A stretch of DNA of 61,595 bases, counting the filler, from Candidatus Omnitrophota bacterium (lineage in GTDB: Bacteria; Omnitrophota; Gorgyraeia; Zapsychrales; JBDRMG01): the NCBI GenBank assembly GCA_043812495.1. It is 5 parts of 5 records of this genome, joined end to end, with 100 filler letters (N's around TTAATTAATTAA, not from the genome) between each part and the next. Parts side by side here need not be neighbours in the genome. Positions count along the whole stretch, not along the records: positions 32,516 to 48,757 come from JBDRMG010000054.1; 4 more parts are not named here. One strand, written 5' to 3'. Every line of letters starts with the position of its first letter. Position 1 is the stretch's first letter. Made by a program: the position numbers and the translations under genes. This document shows positions 13,581 to 33,836 of this stretch, piece after piece. The notes under the pieces are model-generated. The model was not told where the DNA came from. It was given only the letters and a program-made list of their open reading frames with translations, and ran no database searches.

Positions 13581-15311
13581 CTAAATTTTATCCTGAATTT
13601 CTTTTTCGATGCGCTCGATCCATTGATCTACACTCATCGCGCCCAGATCCCCCTCTTGTCTTTTGCGAACAGCCACCTGGTCGGCTTTGATTTCTTTGTC
13701 GCCGACCACCAAAAGATAAGGAATCTTTTTTAAGGTTCCTTCGCGGATACGCTTGCCGAGCGTTTCGTTTCTTGGGTCAATTATAACCCGAATTCCGCGC
13801 GTCTGCAATTTTCCTTTTAGGGATTTTGTGAAGTCCTCGTGTTCGGGCTTAATCGGAATAATCAGGGCCTGCACGGGCGCCAGCCACGCAGGAAAAGCGC
13901 CCGCGTAATGTTCGATCAGGGTTCCCATAAAGCGTTCGATGCTCCCGAGCATGGCCCGATGAATCATGATGGGCCTGGCCTTCTCTCCGTTTTCATTCAC
14001 ATAATGCATGTCAAAGCGCTCGGGGATGGCAAAATCGCATTGGATGGTGGCGCATTGCCAAAGGCGTCCGATGGCGTCTTTAAGCTTGATATCGATCTTG
14101 GGGCCGTAAAAGGCTCCTTCGCCTTCGCAGATTTTGTAACTGAGCTTTTTCTCATTCAGTGATTCTTTCAGCGCTTGTGTCGCCATGTCCCAGTCTTCGA
14201 TTTTGCCGATATATTTTTCGGGACGGGTGCTGATTTCAATTTCGATTTCCTTAAAATTAAAATCCTTCATCACATCAAAAAGAAAATCAACGGCCGCCAT
14301 AACCTCCGGTTTGATTTGATCCGGCCGGCAAAAGATATGCCCGTCATCCTGCGTAAAGCCCCGCACGCGTAAAAGTCCGTGCAAAACACCGGTCTTTTCA
14401 TGGCGATAGACTGTGCCCAGCTCAAAATAACGCACGGGCATGTCGCGGTAGGAGCGGATTTTTGATTTATAAATCAGGATGTGCCCCGGGCAGTTCATGG
14501 GCTTGACCGCGTATTCCTCGCCGTCAACATCAAGATAATACATCAGCTCACGGTAGTAGCCGGCATGGCCCGATGTTTCCCAGAGGCGTCCTTTAAGAAG
14601 ATGCGGCGTAATGACCATTTCGTAACCGCGTTTTAAATTTTGATCTTTGAGATAATCTTCGATAATTTTCCTGACCATCGCCCCGTTGGGATAGAAAAAA
14701 GCCAAGCCGGCCCCTGCCTCATCATGAAAAATATTGAAAAGCTCGAGTTCCGGCCCCAATTTGCGGTGATCTCTTTTTTTGGCTTCCTCAAGAAGATGAA
14801 GATGCTCCTTGAGCTCATTTTCGCTAGAAAAACATGTTCCATAGATGCGTTGAAGTTTTGCTTTTTTCTCATCACCGTGCCAATAGGCGCCGGCGACCGA
14901 AAGCAATTTAAAGGCCTTGATTTGTCCGGCATCGGACACGTGAGGACCTTTACACAAATCAAACCATTCATCTTCCGTAGAAAAAATGGAGACTTTTTCG
15001 TCCGGGAGGTCTTGAATCAATTCGACTTTATACGTTTCGCCTTTGTCTTGAAAAATTTTGATGGCCTCTTGTCGGGGGATAAATTTTTGAACCAGTTTCG
15101 GCTTTTTCTTGATGATTTCTTTCATGACCTTTTCAATCTTCGCAAGGTCTTCCGGCGCAAATGGTTGCGTGCGTTCGAAATCATAGTAGAATCCGTTTTC
15201 GATCGCCGGGCCGATGGCTACCTTGACGTCAGGCCATAATTGTTTCACGGCCTGGGCCATCACATGAGAACAGGAGTGCCTTAATGTTTCTAACTGTGTT
15301 TTATCATTCAT
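13581..15311 (-). CDS. thrS: Threonyl-tRNA synthetase (no N-terminal TGS domain)
   Basis: LRHSCSHVMAQA, DLCKGPH, RDHRKLG, KPMNCPGH, GAFYGPKID. Confidence 0.97.
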   Translation of the reverse strand: MNDKTQLETLRHSCSHVMAQAVKQLWPDVKVAIGPAIENGFYYDFERTQPFAPEDLAKIEKVMKEIIKKKPKLVQKFIPRQEAIKIFQDKGETYKVELIQDLPDEKVSIFSTEDEWFDLCKGPHVSDAGQIKAFKLLSVAGAYWHGDEKKAKLQRIYGTCFSSENELKEHLHLLEEAKKRDHRKLGPELELFNIFHDEAGAGLAFFYPNGAMVRKIIEDYLKDQNLKRGYEMVITPHLLKGRLWETSGHAGYYRELMYYLDVDGEEYAVKPMNCPGHILIYKSKIRSYRDMPVRYFELGTVYRHEKTGVLHGLLRVRGFTQDDGHIFCRPDQIKPEVMAAVDFLFDVMKDFNFKEIEIEISTRPEKYIGKIEDWDMATQALKESLNEKKLSYKICEGEGAFYGPKIDIKLKDAIGRLWQCATIQCDFAIPERFDMHYVNENGEKARPIMIHRAMLGSIERFMGTLIEHYAGAFPAWLAPVQALIIPIKPEHEDFTKSLKGKLQTRGIRVIIDPRNETLGKRIREGTLKKIPYLLVVGDKEIKADQVAVRKRQEGDLGAMSVDQWIERIEKEIQDKI

Positions 15312-15439
15312 AGAAAATTCTGGTGTTCTACTTCACCTCGCTTCTTGCATTCTGCAAGAATGCAGCGGGGCTTCGTAGAACATTCTGCCTGGCTTGTTTC
15401 TTCGAAGTCCGCCACTGATTCAATGGCTGACGGAGAAGA

Positions 15440-15504
15440 ATGGACCCGACCCCGCCGTCTGCCTGTCGGCAGACAGGCGGCGGGGTGGCCTCTTCCATGT
15501 CAAG
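15440..15504 (-). pseudogene. tRNA-Val 3' half with T-arm replaced by a palindromic insert
   Basis: Matches tRNA-Val (TGGACCCGAC...GTGGCCTCTTCCATGTCAAG on + strand) except that AAGACTCGAACTT is replaced by CCCGCCGTCTGCCTGTCGGCAGACAGGCGGCGGG. Confidence 0.8.
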
Positions 15505-15591
15505 CTCGTCACGCGTAAACGCGTGCCGAAGTCTCGTCCCGATAAATCGGGACAAAACAATTCTGAATACTATAAGGGTATTCTATATTTC

Positions 15592-15637
15592 TGGTGGACT
15601 CAGGGGGGCTCGAACCTCCGACCTCTTCCATGTCAAG
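15592..15637 (-). pseudogene. 3' half of a second tRNA-Val(GAC) with encoded CCA
   Basis: CTTGACATGGAAGAGGTCGGAGGTTCGAGCCCCCCTGAGTCCACCA; acceptor strand pairs with the 5' half at 15852-15876. Confidence 0.8.
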
Positions 15638-15734
15638 CCCCGATTTTGCTTTTATTGACACTATGGAAATCGGGGTGCCGGCTTCCACAATTTAAAAATA
15701 GAAGAGCCGGCAAAGCGCTTTGAGTCAATTACAA

Positions 15735-15808
15735 TGGACCCGACAAGACTCGAACTTGTGGCCTCTTCCATGTCAAGGAAGCGCTCTAACCAACTGAGCT
15801 ACGGGTCC
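15735..15808 (-). tRNA. tRNA-Val(GAC)
   Basis: Full cloverleaf GGACCCG...CTTCC-TTGACAT-GGAAG...CGGGTCCA; CCA not encoded. Confidence 0.95.
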
Positions 15809-15851
15809 AAAATTCTTTCCTTATATCAACTTATTTTATCGAAGAGCAACT

Positions 15852-15876
15852 CTCTAACCAACTGAGCTATGAGTCC
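15852..15876 (-). pseudogene. 5' half of second tRNA-Val
   Basis: GGACTCATAGCTCAGTTGGTTAGAG. Confidence 0.75.
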
Positions 15877-15915
15877 ACAAATCTAATTTCTATAGTCCCG
15901 ATTTATCGGGACGGA

Positions 15916-16089
15916 GAAGCGCTCTAATCCCGACACTCCTAATACCCCAATTAAAAGCCAAAGATGGAGGTCGGGACTCCGACTGAGTAAAACGAATGTC
16001 GGAGCCAACTGAGCCCGTCATTGCGCCTTTAGGCGCAATGACGAGGCCTCGGCATCCCGCCAATTGGCGGGATGCCGGGCTACGGGTCC
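15916..16089 (-). pseudogene. tRNA-Val 5' half fragmented by four inserted hairpins
   Basis: GGACCCGTAGC-[2 hairpins]-GCTCAGTTGG-[2 hairpins]-TTAGAGCGCTTC, in tRNA order. Confidence 0.75.
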
Positions 16090-16149
16090 ACATTCAACCT
16101 ATTCTATATATATATCACAATCCCTCGCAACACAAGCTTATCATACGAT

Positions 16150-16241: not shown

Positions 16242-16547
16242 TCATTGAGCGAAGTCCCGAGTCTCCCTCTTTTCTTGATTGCGAGACGAGGGAAACCTCT
16301 TGCCAGTTCCATAAAGAGCTAAATTTTCCTTATTCTTCCTGCTATATCTTTTTATTTCTTTTTCTCTCAACTCAGCGCTTTTCTTGCTCGACAACTCTTC
16401 ATAATAAATCAATTCAACAGGTCGTCTATGCTTTGTGTATTTGGCTCCTCTTCCTTCATTGTGCTGCTGAACCCTTGAATGAATATCTTCTGATGACCCT
16501 ACGTAAAAAGATCTATCCGAGCAGAGTAAAATGTAAATATACCACAT
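16242..16547 (-). CDS. Small GIY-YIG nuclease (UPF0213-like)
   Basis: WYIYILLCSDRSFYVGSS...R...HNEGRGAKYT...A..REKEIK. Confidence 0.9.
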   Translation of the reverse strand: MWYIYILLCSDRSFYVGSSEDIHSRVQQHNEGRGAKYTKHRRPVELIYYEELSSKKSAELREKEIKRYSRKNKENLALYGTGKRFPSSRNQEKRETRDFAQ

Positions 16548-16590
16548 ATTTCATAAAGTCAATCCCTCGCAGCTATTCCTTTGTTATGGC

Positions 16591-24784: not shown

Positions 24785-25144
24785 ATGTATAATGTATATG
24801 TTCTTCAAAGTAGTAAAAACAAGAAAAGATATGTAGGTTTTACAAGCAAAACTGTAGCTGAGCGATTAAAGGAACACAATTCTGGATCAAACAGTTTTAC
24901 GCGTCAAAATAAACCTTTTGAAGTTATTTATTCTGAGGAATACGATAATAAAAGTTTCGCCCAAAAGCGTGAGCGATTTCTAAAATCTGGTCACGGACGA
25001 AATTTTCTTAAAAGAAAACTAGCAGAACATTTATTCCCCTGTAGCTCAGTTGGTAGAGCGGGTGGCTGTGAGCAGGGTATGAAGGGAGGTGGCAACTGGC
25101 AAAGCGCGATACAAGGACTTATGAAGATCGCCGCGAATATTTAA
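24785..25144 (+). CDS. Small GIY-YIG nuclease whose frame runs through the tRNA-Asn 5' exon
   Basis: YNVYVLQS...RYVGFT...ERLKEHNSG...RERFLKSGHGR. Confidence 0.88.
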   Translation: MYNVYVLQSSKNKKRYVGFTSKTVAERLKEHNSGSNSFTRQNKPFEVIYSEEYDNKSFAQKRERFLKSGHGRNFLKRKLAEHLFPCSSVGRAGGCEQGMKGGGNWQSAIQGLMKIAANI

Positions 25145-25587
25145 TCTCTGCCGTTCGAAAGCGAAGAAAAAAAGTTCGTCAGAACGCAGTTAAATATAAA
25201 GGTGGTCGTTGCCAAATATGTGGCTATCATCGTTGTATCGACGCTCTCGAGTTTCATCATAATGACTCTTCGGGAAAAGACTTTAGCATATCAAGCAAAG
25301 GATATACTCGAAGCTGGGTTAAAGTCAAAGAAGAGTTAGAAAAATGTATTCTCGTTTGCGCCAATTGCCATCGTGAAATTCATGCTCAAAACGCAGCTTC
25401 TACGGGAAACCGTGGTTGAAAAAGCGGGAGGATTCAGGGAAGCCCAAACGTTAAGTCGAGGGTAATCCTGAGCCGAGCCCTGTAATTTAGGGAAGGTGCA
25501 GAGACTATGCACCCGCTACCTAAATCCAAGATTCATTGGATAAGGTAAAGAGATAGTCCAAGTCCGAAAGTAATTTCGGGTCACTTG
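25070..25587 (+). ncRNA. Group I self-splicing intron (IC3-like), 518 nt
   Basis: 5' exon ends in U and the intron ends in G; IGS GCAGCT (25393-25398) pairs with GGCTGT including the U-G wobble; core elements TTCAGGGAA, AATCCTGAGCC, GTGCAGAGACT, AAGAGATAGTCC; P3 AGCGGG/CCCGCT. Confidence 0.92.
25096..25419 (+). CDS. Intron-encoded HNH endonuclease (107 aa, CTG start; absent from the ORF track)
   Basis: GGAGGT SD then CTG; translation includes CQICGY..C..ALEFHH...CILVCANCHREIH. Confidence 0.82.
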   Translation: MAKRDTRTYEDRREYLISAVRKRRKKVRQNAVKYKGGRCQICGYHRCIDALEFHHNDSSGKDFSISSKGYTRSWVKVKEELEKCILVCANCHREIHAQNAASTGNRG

Positions 25588-27251
25588 TAACCACTAGGTC
25601 CGAGGTTCGAGTCCTCGCGGGGGAGCCAGTTAGACGTCTGACAGCGGATTTCTTCGCTGTCAGATTCGCATAGATCAAGTAGCCCTGTGTCGGGTTGACG
25701 CCCATACAGGGCTATTTGTATTTTGGTGGGGCTTAGGGTAGCTTTGTGCAGGACGAGCCTTACCATGTCCTTCTGCCGGTAAGGCTTTATCTTATCGAAA
25801 AGGTCGGAGAATCGGCTCAAAGCCAGCGTTACAAGCTCCCGGCTTATCGATTCCCGCTCGATCTCCTTGATCATGGCCTCAAGCGAGGCTATGCCGGTTT
25901 CTATCTCTTTCCGGCGTTGGCCAAGCTCGGCAAGTTTCTCTTTGAGGAATATACTGCTGTCATCCGTGGCCATGGCAGTCCATTTATTCATTATCCCATC
26001 GGCAAAAGCCTTTACCTCGGCCAGCTCTTTTTGAAGATGAGTTTTCCTGTGTTTAAGCTGTGGCAGTTCCTTCATTAGCTTTTCATTGGTATGCTCTATT
26101 AGCTTTTCCATTAGGCCGGAATCGGATGAGAGATATTTTATACGTTTGATTATAATACGTTCAATCTCATCAGCCGGGAGTTTGAACCGGCAATCTTTAT
26201 TTTTGCATACGTAGAAAAAGTATTTATTACCACGTCTGCCTGTCCCGCAGGTTCCTTCCATCTGCCCGCCGCATTTACCGCACCACAAAAGTCCGCCATT
26301 TAAAATATAAGTGTGTTTGATTGTTTTCGTGCCGTTGTGCTTGGTTTTGGTGTTTTGCTTGATGAGCTTCTGGACCTTGTAGAAGGTCTCCTCATCGATT
26401 AAAGGCTCCCAGACCGCCTTGACGGTCCTGTAGCGCTCTTTTTCCTGTAGCTTTGTCTGATCCTCTAATCTTTTCTTTTTGTTGATCTCTTTAAGTCCGA
26501 TATAGGCGCAATTGACGAGTAGTTGTTTTATGGATGACCGGCCGAATTTCTCGGGAGTGCGGAATTTGCCTCTTCGTGAGGTATATCCTTTGGTGCGATA
26601 GCCATTATCATTAAGGGCCCGGGCTGTTCCCATAAGCGAACCGCATTCAAGGTATTTCTTGAAGGCGAATCGCACAAGGGCCTTTTCTTTTTCGTTTACG
26701 ATTGGGTAACCTTTACGGTTAGGATCAAGGTCAAAGCCTAACAAATGCCCGCCATTCCACAGGCCTCGTTCTGCCCGGGCAAGTGTAGCTTCTTTATTGC
26801 GCTCGGAGGTCTGTGTCCGCTCGAATTCGGCCAAAGCCATCATTATAGTGATGAAAAGTTTTCCTTGAGAAGACGTGGTGTCGTAGTTTTGTTTTAAACA
26901 TACGAATTCGACATCGTATTTGGTGAGGATCTCGAAGAAGTTTAAGAAATCTCTTACCGAGCGGCTTATCCGGTCAAGTGCGGTACATATAACGGTATTT
27001 ACCTTACCTGACTTGATATCCTCGAGAAGTTGGGCAAATTCGATGCTTCGGAAGGAATCCTTGCCGGAGATACCTTTAAGAATGTATCGGCCGGTTTCGA
27101 CCCATCGTTCCCCGCAGGCAGTGGTTTTATATTCGATATGGGCCTGCAGACGCTGGAGTTGATTGGTAAGCGAGCCCTCAGGGTTTCGGGCCTGTTTGTC
27201 GGTGCTTACCCTTATCACGAATCCGCAGTTTTTGATTATCTTATCTTCCAT
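25581..27251 (-). CDS. Large serine recombinase/integrase
   Basis: RVSTDKQ catalytic Ser, LDRISRS, LAEFER, recombinase domain, CxxC zinc ribbon, coiled coil; 3' end overlaps tRNA-Asn. Confidence 0.92.
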   Translation of the reverse strand: MEDKIIKNCGFVIRVSTDKQARNPEGSLTNQLQRLQAHIEYKTTACGERWVETGRYILKGISGKDSFRSIEFAQLLEDIKSGKVNTVICTALDRISRSVRDFLNFFEILTKYDVEFVCLKQNYDTTSSQGKLFITIMMALAEFERTQTSERNKEATLARAERGLWNGGHLLGFDLDPNRKGYPIVNEKEKALVRFAFKKYLECGSLMGTARALNDNGYRTKGYTSRRGKFRTPEKFGRSSIKQLLVNCAYIGLKEINKKKRLEDQTKLQEKERYRTVKAVWEPLIDEETFYKVQKLIKQNTKTKHNGTKTIKHTYILNGGLLWCGKCGGQMEGTCGTGRRGNKYFFYVCKNKDCRFKLPADEIERIIIKRIKYLSSDSGLMEKLIEHTNEKLMKELPQLKHRKTHLQKELAEVKAFADGIMNKWTAMATDDSSIFLKEKLAELGQRRKEIETGIASLEAMIKEIERESISRELVTLALSRFSDLFDKIKPYRQKDMVRLVLHKATLSPTKIQIALYGRQPDTGLLDLCESDSEEIRCQTSNWLPREDSNLGPSGYK

Positions 27252-27286
27252 AACAACATAACCCCTATAACAATACTTGGCACAAG

Positions 27287-27502
27287 TCAAGCTGAATCAA
27301 GGCCTTGTAAGGGCGATTCATCGCTTGGCTTAGTTCTATCAAGCAGGGCTTCAACCCGCTTTTTCCGATCCGGGCGTTCTTTTAAGAGGCCCTGGTCCTT
27401 CAAGTATTCGTATAGGCCATCGGAGAGGATGTCGATAAAACCCTCTTCCCACTGGGCCTTGTCTTTAATAGGTATATAAGTTATCTCGACTTTTTTCTTC
27501 AT
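27287..27502 (-). CDS. Small hypothetical protein upstream of the integrase
   Basis: 71-aa ORF co-oriented with the recombinase at the contig end. Confidence 0.55.
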   Translation of the reverse strand: MKKKVEITYIPIKDKAQWEEGFIDILSDGLYEYLKDQGLLKERPDRKKRVEALLDRTKPSDESPLQGLDSA

Positions 27503-32415: not shown

Positions 32416-32515
32416 NNNNNNNNNNNNNNNNNNNNNNNNNNNNNNNNNNNNNNNNNNNNTTAATTAATTAANNNNNNNNNNNNNNNNNNNNNNNNNNNNN
32501 NNNNNNNNNNNNNNN
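32416..32515. other. Artificial contig linker
   Basis: N-run with TTAATTAATTAA. Confidence 0.98.
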
Positions 32516-32543: not shown

Positions 32544-32629
32544 TGGTGGGCAAGGAGGGAGTCGAACCCTCACAGCCTTACGGCCACAGGATTTTAAGTC
32601 CTGCGTGTATGCCATTCCACCACTTGCCC
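32544..32629 (-). tRNA. tRNA-Leu(TAA)
   Basis: GGGCAAG...CAGGA-CTTAAAA-TCCTG, variable arm, ...CTTGCCCACCA. Confidence 0.95.
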
Positions 32630-32910: not shown

Positions 32911-32950
32911 AGGCGTGGACCGGAATCGAACCGGTGAATAATGGTTTTGC
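32911..32950 (-). pseudogene. 3' half of outer tRNA-Cys
   Basis: GCAAAACCATTATTCACCGGTTCGATTCCGGTCCACGCCT. Confidence 0.85.
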
Positions 32951-32984
32951 CCCTCGCTTTTAGATTTAATACAATTCCATTTAA

Positions 32985-33056
32985 AGGCGACGACCGGAAT
33001 CGAACCGGTGAATAATGGTTTTGCAGACCACTGCCTTACCACTTGGCTACGTCGCC
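32985..33056 (-). tRNA. tRNA-Cys(GCA)
   Basis: GGCGACG...GTGGT-CTGCAAA-ACCAT...CGTCGCCT. Confidence 0.95.
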
Positions 33057-33106
33057 AAATTTATTATAAATATTCTCGCTCGGGATGCCGAGCGAAAAGC
33101 GAGGCA

Positions 33107-33138
33107 AGACCACCGCCTTACCACTTGGCTACCACGCC
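33107..33138 (-). pseudogene. 5' half of outer tRNA-Cys
   Basis: GGCGTGGTAGCCAAGTGGTAAGGCGGTGGTCT; acceptor pairs with CCACGCC of the 32911-32950 half. Confidence 0.85.
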
Positions 33139-33290
33139 GTAAAATCTCGCGTCCTTCAACGCGCCCGCCATTAATTTATTGGCAGGCTTGCTCAGGACAC
33201 TTCGCCTCGGCCGAAATACTAAAACACTGAGCGAGGCCCAACATTATGTTGGGCCGAGTCGAAGTGCTACCACGCCAATTTATTTGAAAA

Positions 33291-33836
33291 TCATTTTAAA
33301 GAGCGCATTGTTTCTTTAACGATATCTTCGACTTCGGCCAAATGTCCGATACCTTTTGTGCCGCAAGCGAGTTTTCCTTTAATGGGATCAACAAAGCGAA
33401 TGCCAATTTTTCTAAGTCTTTGAATGTTGTCCTGGACAATTTTGTTTTTATACATTTGGTCGTTCATGGCCGGCGCTATAACGATAGGCGCGCTGGCCGC
33501 CATAGCCACACAGGAAAGCAAGTCATCCGCAAGGCCGTTCGCGATTTTTCCTATCATATTGGCTGTAGCGGGCGCAATCAAAAGAACATCGGCGCTTTGC
33601 GCTAAAGGAATATGGGCTGATTCCCAAGAGTTATGGTCTTGATCAAACATTTCTCTATAAACCTTTGATCCGGTTAGTGTTGCGAATGTTAAAGGCGTCA
33701 CGAATTGCTCGGCTTCTTTTGTCATAATCACGCTCACTTCAATGTTTTTGTCCTGAAGTCGACGAATGATCTCGCAAGCCTTATACGCCGCGATGCCGCC
33801 CGTCACACCCAATATCACTTTTTTTACTTTGACCAC
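33291..33836 (-). CDS. coaC: Phosphopantothenoylcysteine decarboxylase (stand-alone CoaC domain)
   Basis: GVTGGIAAYK, APATAN, APAMN, LACG..G.G. Confidence 0.88.
   Translation of the reverse strand: MVKVKKVILGVTGGIAAYKACEIIRRLQDKNIEVSVIMTKEAEQFVTPLTFATLTGSKVYREMFDQDHNSWESAHIPLAQSADVLLIAPATANMIGKIANGLADDLLSCVAMAASAPIVIAPAMNDQMYKNKIVQDNIQRLRKIGIRFVDPIKGKLACGTKGIGHLAEVEDIVKETMRSLK

Follow-up and report, generated by a model that had tools for sequence, protein, structure and literature searches.

A double-hairpin cassette carrying an intact tRNA-Cys gene within the anticodon loop of another tRNA-Cys gene in an Omnitrophota genome

What is a complete tRNA-Cys gene doing inside the anticodon loop of another one? 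For this locus in a Candidatus Omnitrophota bacterium, the original prediction, made from the DNA alone, gave two possible answers: an insertion that rescues its own target, or an excisable intervening sequence. As described below, the insert is a real and recurrent self-rescuing hairpin cassette that is not unique to the window; it is apparently undescribed and is probably not an intron.

The nested locus and its empty counterpart

Positions are those of the window, the whole stretch of 61,595 nt analysed here, in which contigs C50, C51, C52, C54 and C61 are artificially joined by N blocks with an all-frame stop linker (window 32460–32471 and other N runs). Contig C54 begins at window 32516, and the nested locus lies 400 nt inside it. 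The assembly of this genome (G000) is 90% complete; its closest relative, G001, belongs to the same family and to another genus. Elsewhere in the window, a 6S RNA was found at 1598–1750 (−; Rfam RF00013, 57.4 bits).

An intact tRNA-Cys inside the anticodon loop of a second tRNA-Cys was confirmed, with all parts on the minus strand of C54. The order along that strand is a flavoprotein gene (33291–33836), which we take to be coaBC-like, an 11-nt stub, the outer 5′ half, the insert, the outer 3′ half and tRNA-Leu(TAA) (32544–32629, −), a conserved downstream neighbour. The 5′ half of the outer gene occupies 33107–33138 (−), where its 32 nt run through U33 and end in CU, as judged from repeats, reading of the sequence and the match to G001; the 3′ half, from G34 to the discriminator, lies at about 32911–32950 (−) and was placed by repeats and the G001 match. 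Between them is the 156-nt cassette (32951–33106, −), which was delimited using homologues and has no target-site duplication. Its cargo, an intact tRNA-Cys(GCA) at 32985–33056 (−; Rfam 71 bits), is the sole tRNA-Cys called by ARAGORN in the assembly, and Rfam likewise sees only the inner gene at the locus. A third 5′ echo had been reported as well, and a repeat search recovers it as the stub at 33266–33276 (−), which its repeat family and sequence reading mark as the 5′ end of a still older tRNA-Cys copy. Behind it is a second hairpin doublet, free of cargo (33152–33266, −), made up of a hairpin at 33198–33266 and a B-type hairpin at 33152–33197 whose ends were read by eye. Since the stub is followed by another doublet, the locus records at least two rounds.

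The relative G001 indicates which gene was there before. When the outer halves are rejoined without loss or gain, ARAGORN calls a tRNA-Cys(GCA) that agrees at 72/72 bases with the one uninterrupted tRNA-Cys of G001, which has the same neighbours on both sides. The inner gene differs from the outer gene at 5 bases: acceptor positions 5/6 and 67/68, where two pairs are changed with compensation, and a single position ahead of the anticodon stem. This bears out the different acceptor stem described originally; the two genes of this genome are identical throughout the anticodon arm, the T arm and the region between them. The outer gene is therefore the old resident and the inner gene came with the insert, and the compensated pairs in the acceptor stem argue that the newcomer is not a fresh local copy. 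Three tandem tRNA-Cys genes with reciprocal deletions, the competing history raised by the original prediction, were not seen, G001 having a single gene at this place; given the outer match to G001 and an inner gene that arrived with the insert, such a history is also unneeded. The empty-site allele comes from the other genus, and no presence/absence pair turned up within a single species.

Recurrence, insertion site and hairpin anatomy

A pattern consisting of a tRNA 3′ end, a short spacer and an orphan tRNA-Cys 3′ half was found in 6/168 genomes of the order, while the reversed control gave 0. These six genomes are scattered over several families; the split falls in the anticodon loop in four of them and at 26/27 in the other two. 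Taken with the direct repeats at the locus (one of 44 nt at 93%, the other of 32 nt at 91%) and with a precursor folding z of −5.6, which 0/200 shuffles equal, the counts exclude a chance origin of the layout. A GTDB-wide scan gave 8 matches, of which three were dropped as not nested; four of the remaining 5 are in records labelled Omnitrophota or Omnitrophica. Another 24 contigs came from a metagenome scan, and the junction 16-mer occurred in 6/401 genomes of a phylum sample, three times in real Cys cassettes and three times as chance matches with no tRNA nearby. Viral contigs gave 0 matches for two cassette patterns. Removal of identical copies left 22 distinct cassettes in the anticodon loop, a number of sequences rather than events since kin are not independent, and 3 at 26/27; one locus (L044), cut by a contig end, lies outside the parsed set. 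One cassette occurs with identical sequence in three different collections. Nesting is triple at loci L026 and L031, where the right ends of two cassettes come one after the other and a different tRNA-Cys 3′ half follows each, and L016, L017 and L036 represent a second cassette family with tRNA-Cys nested at 26/27 and unrelated ends.

The clean join at 33/34 described originally holds for this copy but not for the family, in which G34 stays on the 5′ side in 15/17 scorable cassettes and the terminal base of the cassette is A in 19/22. From these counts, the family site lies between TG and CA (34/35), with no duplication. Neither junction base of the copy in the window, whose last base is G, agrees with the family; this copy is either a one-base-shifted insertion or one in which G34 was lost and the last base changed. 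Since the family insert follows G34 and ends in A, the intron-like U and G boundaries seen here are not conserved.

Terminal inverted repeats had also been proposed for the insert. A 10-nt repeat is indeed present (32952–32961 and 33095–33104), but the conserved unit, as covariation indicates, is a pair of flush hairpins. Hairpin A (33086–33106, −), supported by folding and covariation, is 21 nt long with a 4-bp base and a 2×2 internal mismatch. The left arm of hairpin B (33078–33085, −) abuts it directly, and the right arm (32951–32957, −) closes the insert; the loop of hairpin B consists of A/T-rich flanks and the tRNA gene, which thus sits at its tip. The same motif, mismatch included, makes up both hairpins in opposite orientations, and this gives the ends their resemblance to terminal inverted repeats. 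In the 16 homologous cassettes scored for covariation, the second and diagnostic pair of hairpin A holds in 15/16 (G-C in 8, C-G in 4, A-T in 2, G-T in 1) and the fourth pair of hairpin B in 16/16 (C-G in 8, T-A in 5, T-G in 3), whereas the same second position can be paired end to end in only 5/16. A terminal-inverted-repeat (MITE) model was ruled out on these grounds, as pairing covaries inside the hairpins and not between the insert ends. The two hairpins are flush (gap 0) in 11/16 scorable cassettes. The tRNA-bearing stem varies in strength: some cassettes have a strong one, but in the window copy it is weak, with 4/18 foreign arms pairing equally well, and the own arm is the best partner in just 8/19 cassettes. 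A doublet without cargo at C64:5241 in this genome matches the Cys cassette over 17 nt of hairpin A and in the two B arms, with five A residues in place of the cargo.

Similar structures occur at other tRNA genes of this genome, 41 of which were examined; many are flanked by shattered copies. A search for clean insertions, which detects only cargo of the same kind as its target, gave 23 candidates. Four were read as clean nests, in tRNA-Cys, tRNA-Thr(TGT) at 35/36, tRNA-Phe at 53/54 and tRNA-Val(GAC) near 22/23, and at least 7 were cargo-free two-hairpin insertions at other positions in tRNA copies. Of the remainder, one was a triple hairpin and most arose as register artefacts where fragments are duplicated. 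In the Thr nest (C57:45100–45800, −), a tRNA-Thr(TGT) lies in the left hairpin, nested at 35/36 in a different tRNA-Thr(TGT), and another Thr copy shattered by several doublets follows; a narrow pattern for this cassette matched 1/168 genomes of the order, namely this one. At C10:32680–33010 (+), a 201-nt insert places a tRNA-Phe in the T arm (53/54) of another tRNA-Phe. In the tRNA-Val(GAC) cluster (window 15250–16100, −), fragments and doublets lie in several layers; the reading frame of the neighbouring GIY-YIG gene runs out in the relic of a tRNA-Leu T arm, itself split at 55/56. At C66:14500–15250 (+), a cargo-free doublet interrupts a full tRNA-Asp copy at 53/54, and a GIY-YIG gene separates this copy from the intact tRNA-Asp that follows.

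Gene decay and rival explanations

The fate of the two genes across the family bears on whether the insert is spliced. Of the 22 cassettes, 21 have every acceptor pair of the inner gene, whereas only 8 retain an intact outer 5′ half (in 12 it is broken or missing, and in 2 a contig end cuts it); 18 retain the whole outer 3′ half. All 8 intact outer genes retain 7/7 acceptor pairs, which fits recent insertion and also residual function. The one inner exception, L039, is a hybrid tRNA-Cys with two acceptor mismatches: its 3′ end fits the 5′ strand of the outer gene, and the outer 3′ end fits the inner 5′ strand. L039 is a recombinant or a chimeric contig. Since outer halves decay in relatives and inner genes stay intact, splicing is argued against, and the split outer gene is likely dead. 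An insertion rescuing its own target is thus supported by the empty site in G001, by the 22 distinct cassettes and by the preservation of inner stems relative to outer 5′ halves.

The second answer originally proposed, an excisable intervening sequence, finds no support at the RNA level. It would require cuts at both junctions and joining of the outer halves by RtcB, yielding two tRNA-Cys molecules per transcript. The outer halves do rejoin exactly, the predicted precursor keeps the outer cloverleaf with its anticodon arm extended, and RtcB ligase is encoded (PF01139 at C4:3948–5252, E 4e-181). Moreover, the insert follows U and ends in G, as group I introns do, and a true group I intron makes an equally exact anticodon-loop interruption in a tRNA-Asn of the window. 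The cassette, however, has no Rfam match at the locus to group I introns (RF00028; 80.6 bits for the tRNA-Asn intron), its 84 nt outside the cargo tRNA leave no room for a catalytic core, and the U and G at its borders belong to this copy and not to the family, whose outer 5′ halves are so often broken. The archaeal-type tRNA splicing endonuclease was not found (PF01974, 0 matches in the one, 90% complete, genome searched; 4 archaeal controls positive), and similar doublets turn up outside tRNA genes as well as at many positions within them. Both the group I and the BHB intron model were rejected on these grounds, and we regard a spliced intron as very unlikely. Another reading, in which the structure is an immobile scar of an integrative island or a local duplication with only the tRNA gene and end hairpins left, draws on the frequent use of tRNA genes as integration targets, which leaves fragments behind (PMC9897764), and on the inner/outer identity from anticodon arm to T arm in this genome. 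The recurrence of the compact anatomy and site in 22 distinct cassettes, the covarying hairpins and the compensated acceptor differences, which speak against a fresh local copy, make it unlikely. The tRNA-targeting integrative elements described in that source are 9–23 kb long, encode an integrase and carry one full and one partial tRNA copy at opposite ends; like them, the cassette disrupts a tRNA gene and leaves one working copy, but it has 156 bp, no integrase or any gene besides a whole different tRNA, both tRNA halves flanking it and no duplicated att core.

REPINs, as described in PMC3337134, resemble the cassette in build: both are gene-less pairs of inverted copies of an imperfect palindrome that can fold end to end, with many dispersed relatives in the genome, and REPINs are associated with RAYT transposases. 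Movement of a REPIN-like doublet by a resident RAYT-type (Y1) transposase, using single-stranded cut-and-paste and with the tRNA as a captured passenger, would account for the two inverted hairpin copies, the lack of target duplication and the existence of a cargo-free form, and the genome has 7 Y1 transposase matches. None of these (0/7) has the motif within 900 nt, however, while RAYTs are typically flanked by REPINs according to the same source. REPs there are spaced and extragenic, whereas the cassette hairpins are flush, with no spacer, and lie inside tRNA genes at fixed positions with a tRNA gene as cargo; we consider this mode of movement unlikely. Finally, a misassembly of reads from two strains or two tRNA-Cys genes could be suspected from the position of the locus near a contig end in a fragmented metagenome assembly. 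In the read search, any one sequencing run held at most 9% of the locus words and no contig crossed the locus; the four aligned to it, of 24 runs listed, covered only conserved tRNA parts, with reads from other organisms, and thus speak neither for nor against the locus. Nonetheless, the structure occurs in many independent assemblies, one cassette being identical in three collections, and misassembly would not produce covarying hairpins, so that an artefact is extremely improbable.

The intron-containing tRNA-Asn(GTT) spans window 25035–25628 (+), with a 518-nt group I intron at 35/36 (Rfam RF00028 and an ARAGORN intron call) that, by eye, presumably holds an HNH-type ORF. A large recombinase ORF (25581–27290, −) runs into the 3′ end of this tRNA gene, and a GIY-YIG gene ends 35 nt upstream of it.

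Candidate nucleases, proposed spread and significance

GIY-YIG nucleases emerge as candidate movers from their positions. Matches to this domain lie within 600 nt of a tRNA gene in 10/16 cases, compared with 2.5% for random places, and a hairpin of the motif group lies within 300 nt of 7/16 GIY-YIG genes; one such hairpin adjoins the 3′ end of the gene at C64:52802. On contig C50, a small GIY-YIG nuclease gene (16248–16550, −) is flanked by the same hairpin motif. The end of C50 overlaps the start of C54 by 49 nt (a repeat), and on the inferred join of these contigs the gene is probably located about 0.55 kb beyond the cassette locus, past tRNA-Leu. NCBIfam gave only a sub-threshold GIY-YIG match for the gene nearest the locus. 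A cis-encoded nuclease was rejected, as none of the 42 nested-locus records (0.6–3.2 kb) contains a GIY-YIG gene. At 10/18 loci the anticodon stem is the same in the inner and the outer gene (shuffled mean 1.67); for the variable loop and T stem this is so in 4/18 (shuffled 0.9) and for the acceptor strand in 2/18 (shuffled 1.0). This drop in identity with distance from the site would fit co-conversion, and would also fit kinship or later local gene conversion; a role of the nuclease in cassette spread is inferred.

Weighing these results, we think it probable that the 156-bp double-hairpin insertion is a gene-less mobile cassette that persists by replacing the gene it breaks, leaving the split outer gene dead. 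This proposal builds on the empty-site allele, the two hairpins, the absence of target duplication, recurrence at 34/35, the cargo-free doublet and decay of outer rather than inner genes. Cargo-free doublets would be lethal in a single-copy tRNA gene and would therefore be seen in spare or dead copies; a doublet with a captured tRNA in its loop could enter a live gene of the same kind. Ordinary maturation of its 5′ and 3′ ends would free the inner tRNA from the transcript without any splicing, and the cassette may persist because it supplies a working replacement for the broken gene. Spread could resemble homing, with a GIY-YIG nuclease acting in trans on hairpin or cloverleaf single-stranded DNA and repair then copying the cassette from a donor allele, the tRNA halves serving as homology arms; this nuclease-and-repair step is the weakest part of the scheme, and we put it forward as a possibility with low confidence. 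The acceptor mismatches of L039 do not fit a cargo that always works unless that contig is chimeric.

Two further known systems share features with the cassette. Ssn nucleases, of the cd10448 clade, cut single-stranded DNA site-specifically beside a hairpin; their small single-domain GIY-YIG genes are flanked by short imperfect hairpin repeats, NTS/SRM (PMC11893778), and hairpin repeats near small GIY-YIG genes are likewise found here. The published degenerate SRM pattern, however, has 7 matches in this genome, none of them at the locus or the C64 doublet, and the main text of that paper, from which the word ‘tRNA’ is absent, describes no cargo, insertion activity or tRNA targeting. The double-hairpin elements of Allomyces mitochondria (cited in PMC2800124) are small and mobile and insert without flanking duplication, as the cassette appears to do, but they belong to a fungal organelle, and the available part of PMC2800124 gives no tRNA cargo or tRNA-position specificity for them. 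The available part of PMC10066038 has no passage on repeats or introns, and a literature search covering few subscription journals found no published description of a self-rescuing tRNA hairpin cassette. In outcome, the cassette resembles a tRNA-restoring integrative element, and in build a REPIN or SRM doublet; from each it departs in defining features. Only tentatively, and with more doubt than attaches to the homing step, would we suggest a distinct class of selfish DNA lacking transposase and integrase, in which double-hairpin cassettes, each fitted to a single position in one tRNA gene and bearing a full replacement tRNA, home into the live gene by means of a small trans-acting GIY-YIG nuclease and cause serial replacement of essential tRNA genes by horizontally acquired copies in Omnitrophota and other uncultured bacteria.

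The two flush hairpins, with the site TG/CA and no duplication, offer a concrete substrate on which to consider the role of many small tRNA-linked GIY-YIG proteins, and they widen a standing question, namely by what means the hairpin repeats associated with Ssn-like nucleases are spread. An enzyme for clean insertion of cargo at a chosen tRNA position could serve as a tool. Cassettes of this kind also account for the clutter of fragments near tRNA genes that annotation programs miss or miscall. If our reading is correct, a 156-bp element can enter a single-copy essential gene without cost, since it brings the replacement along, and tRNA genes of these lineages would have been swapped horizontally again and again, departing from the history of their hosts.
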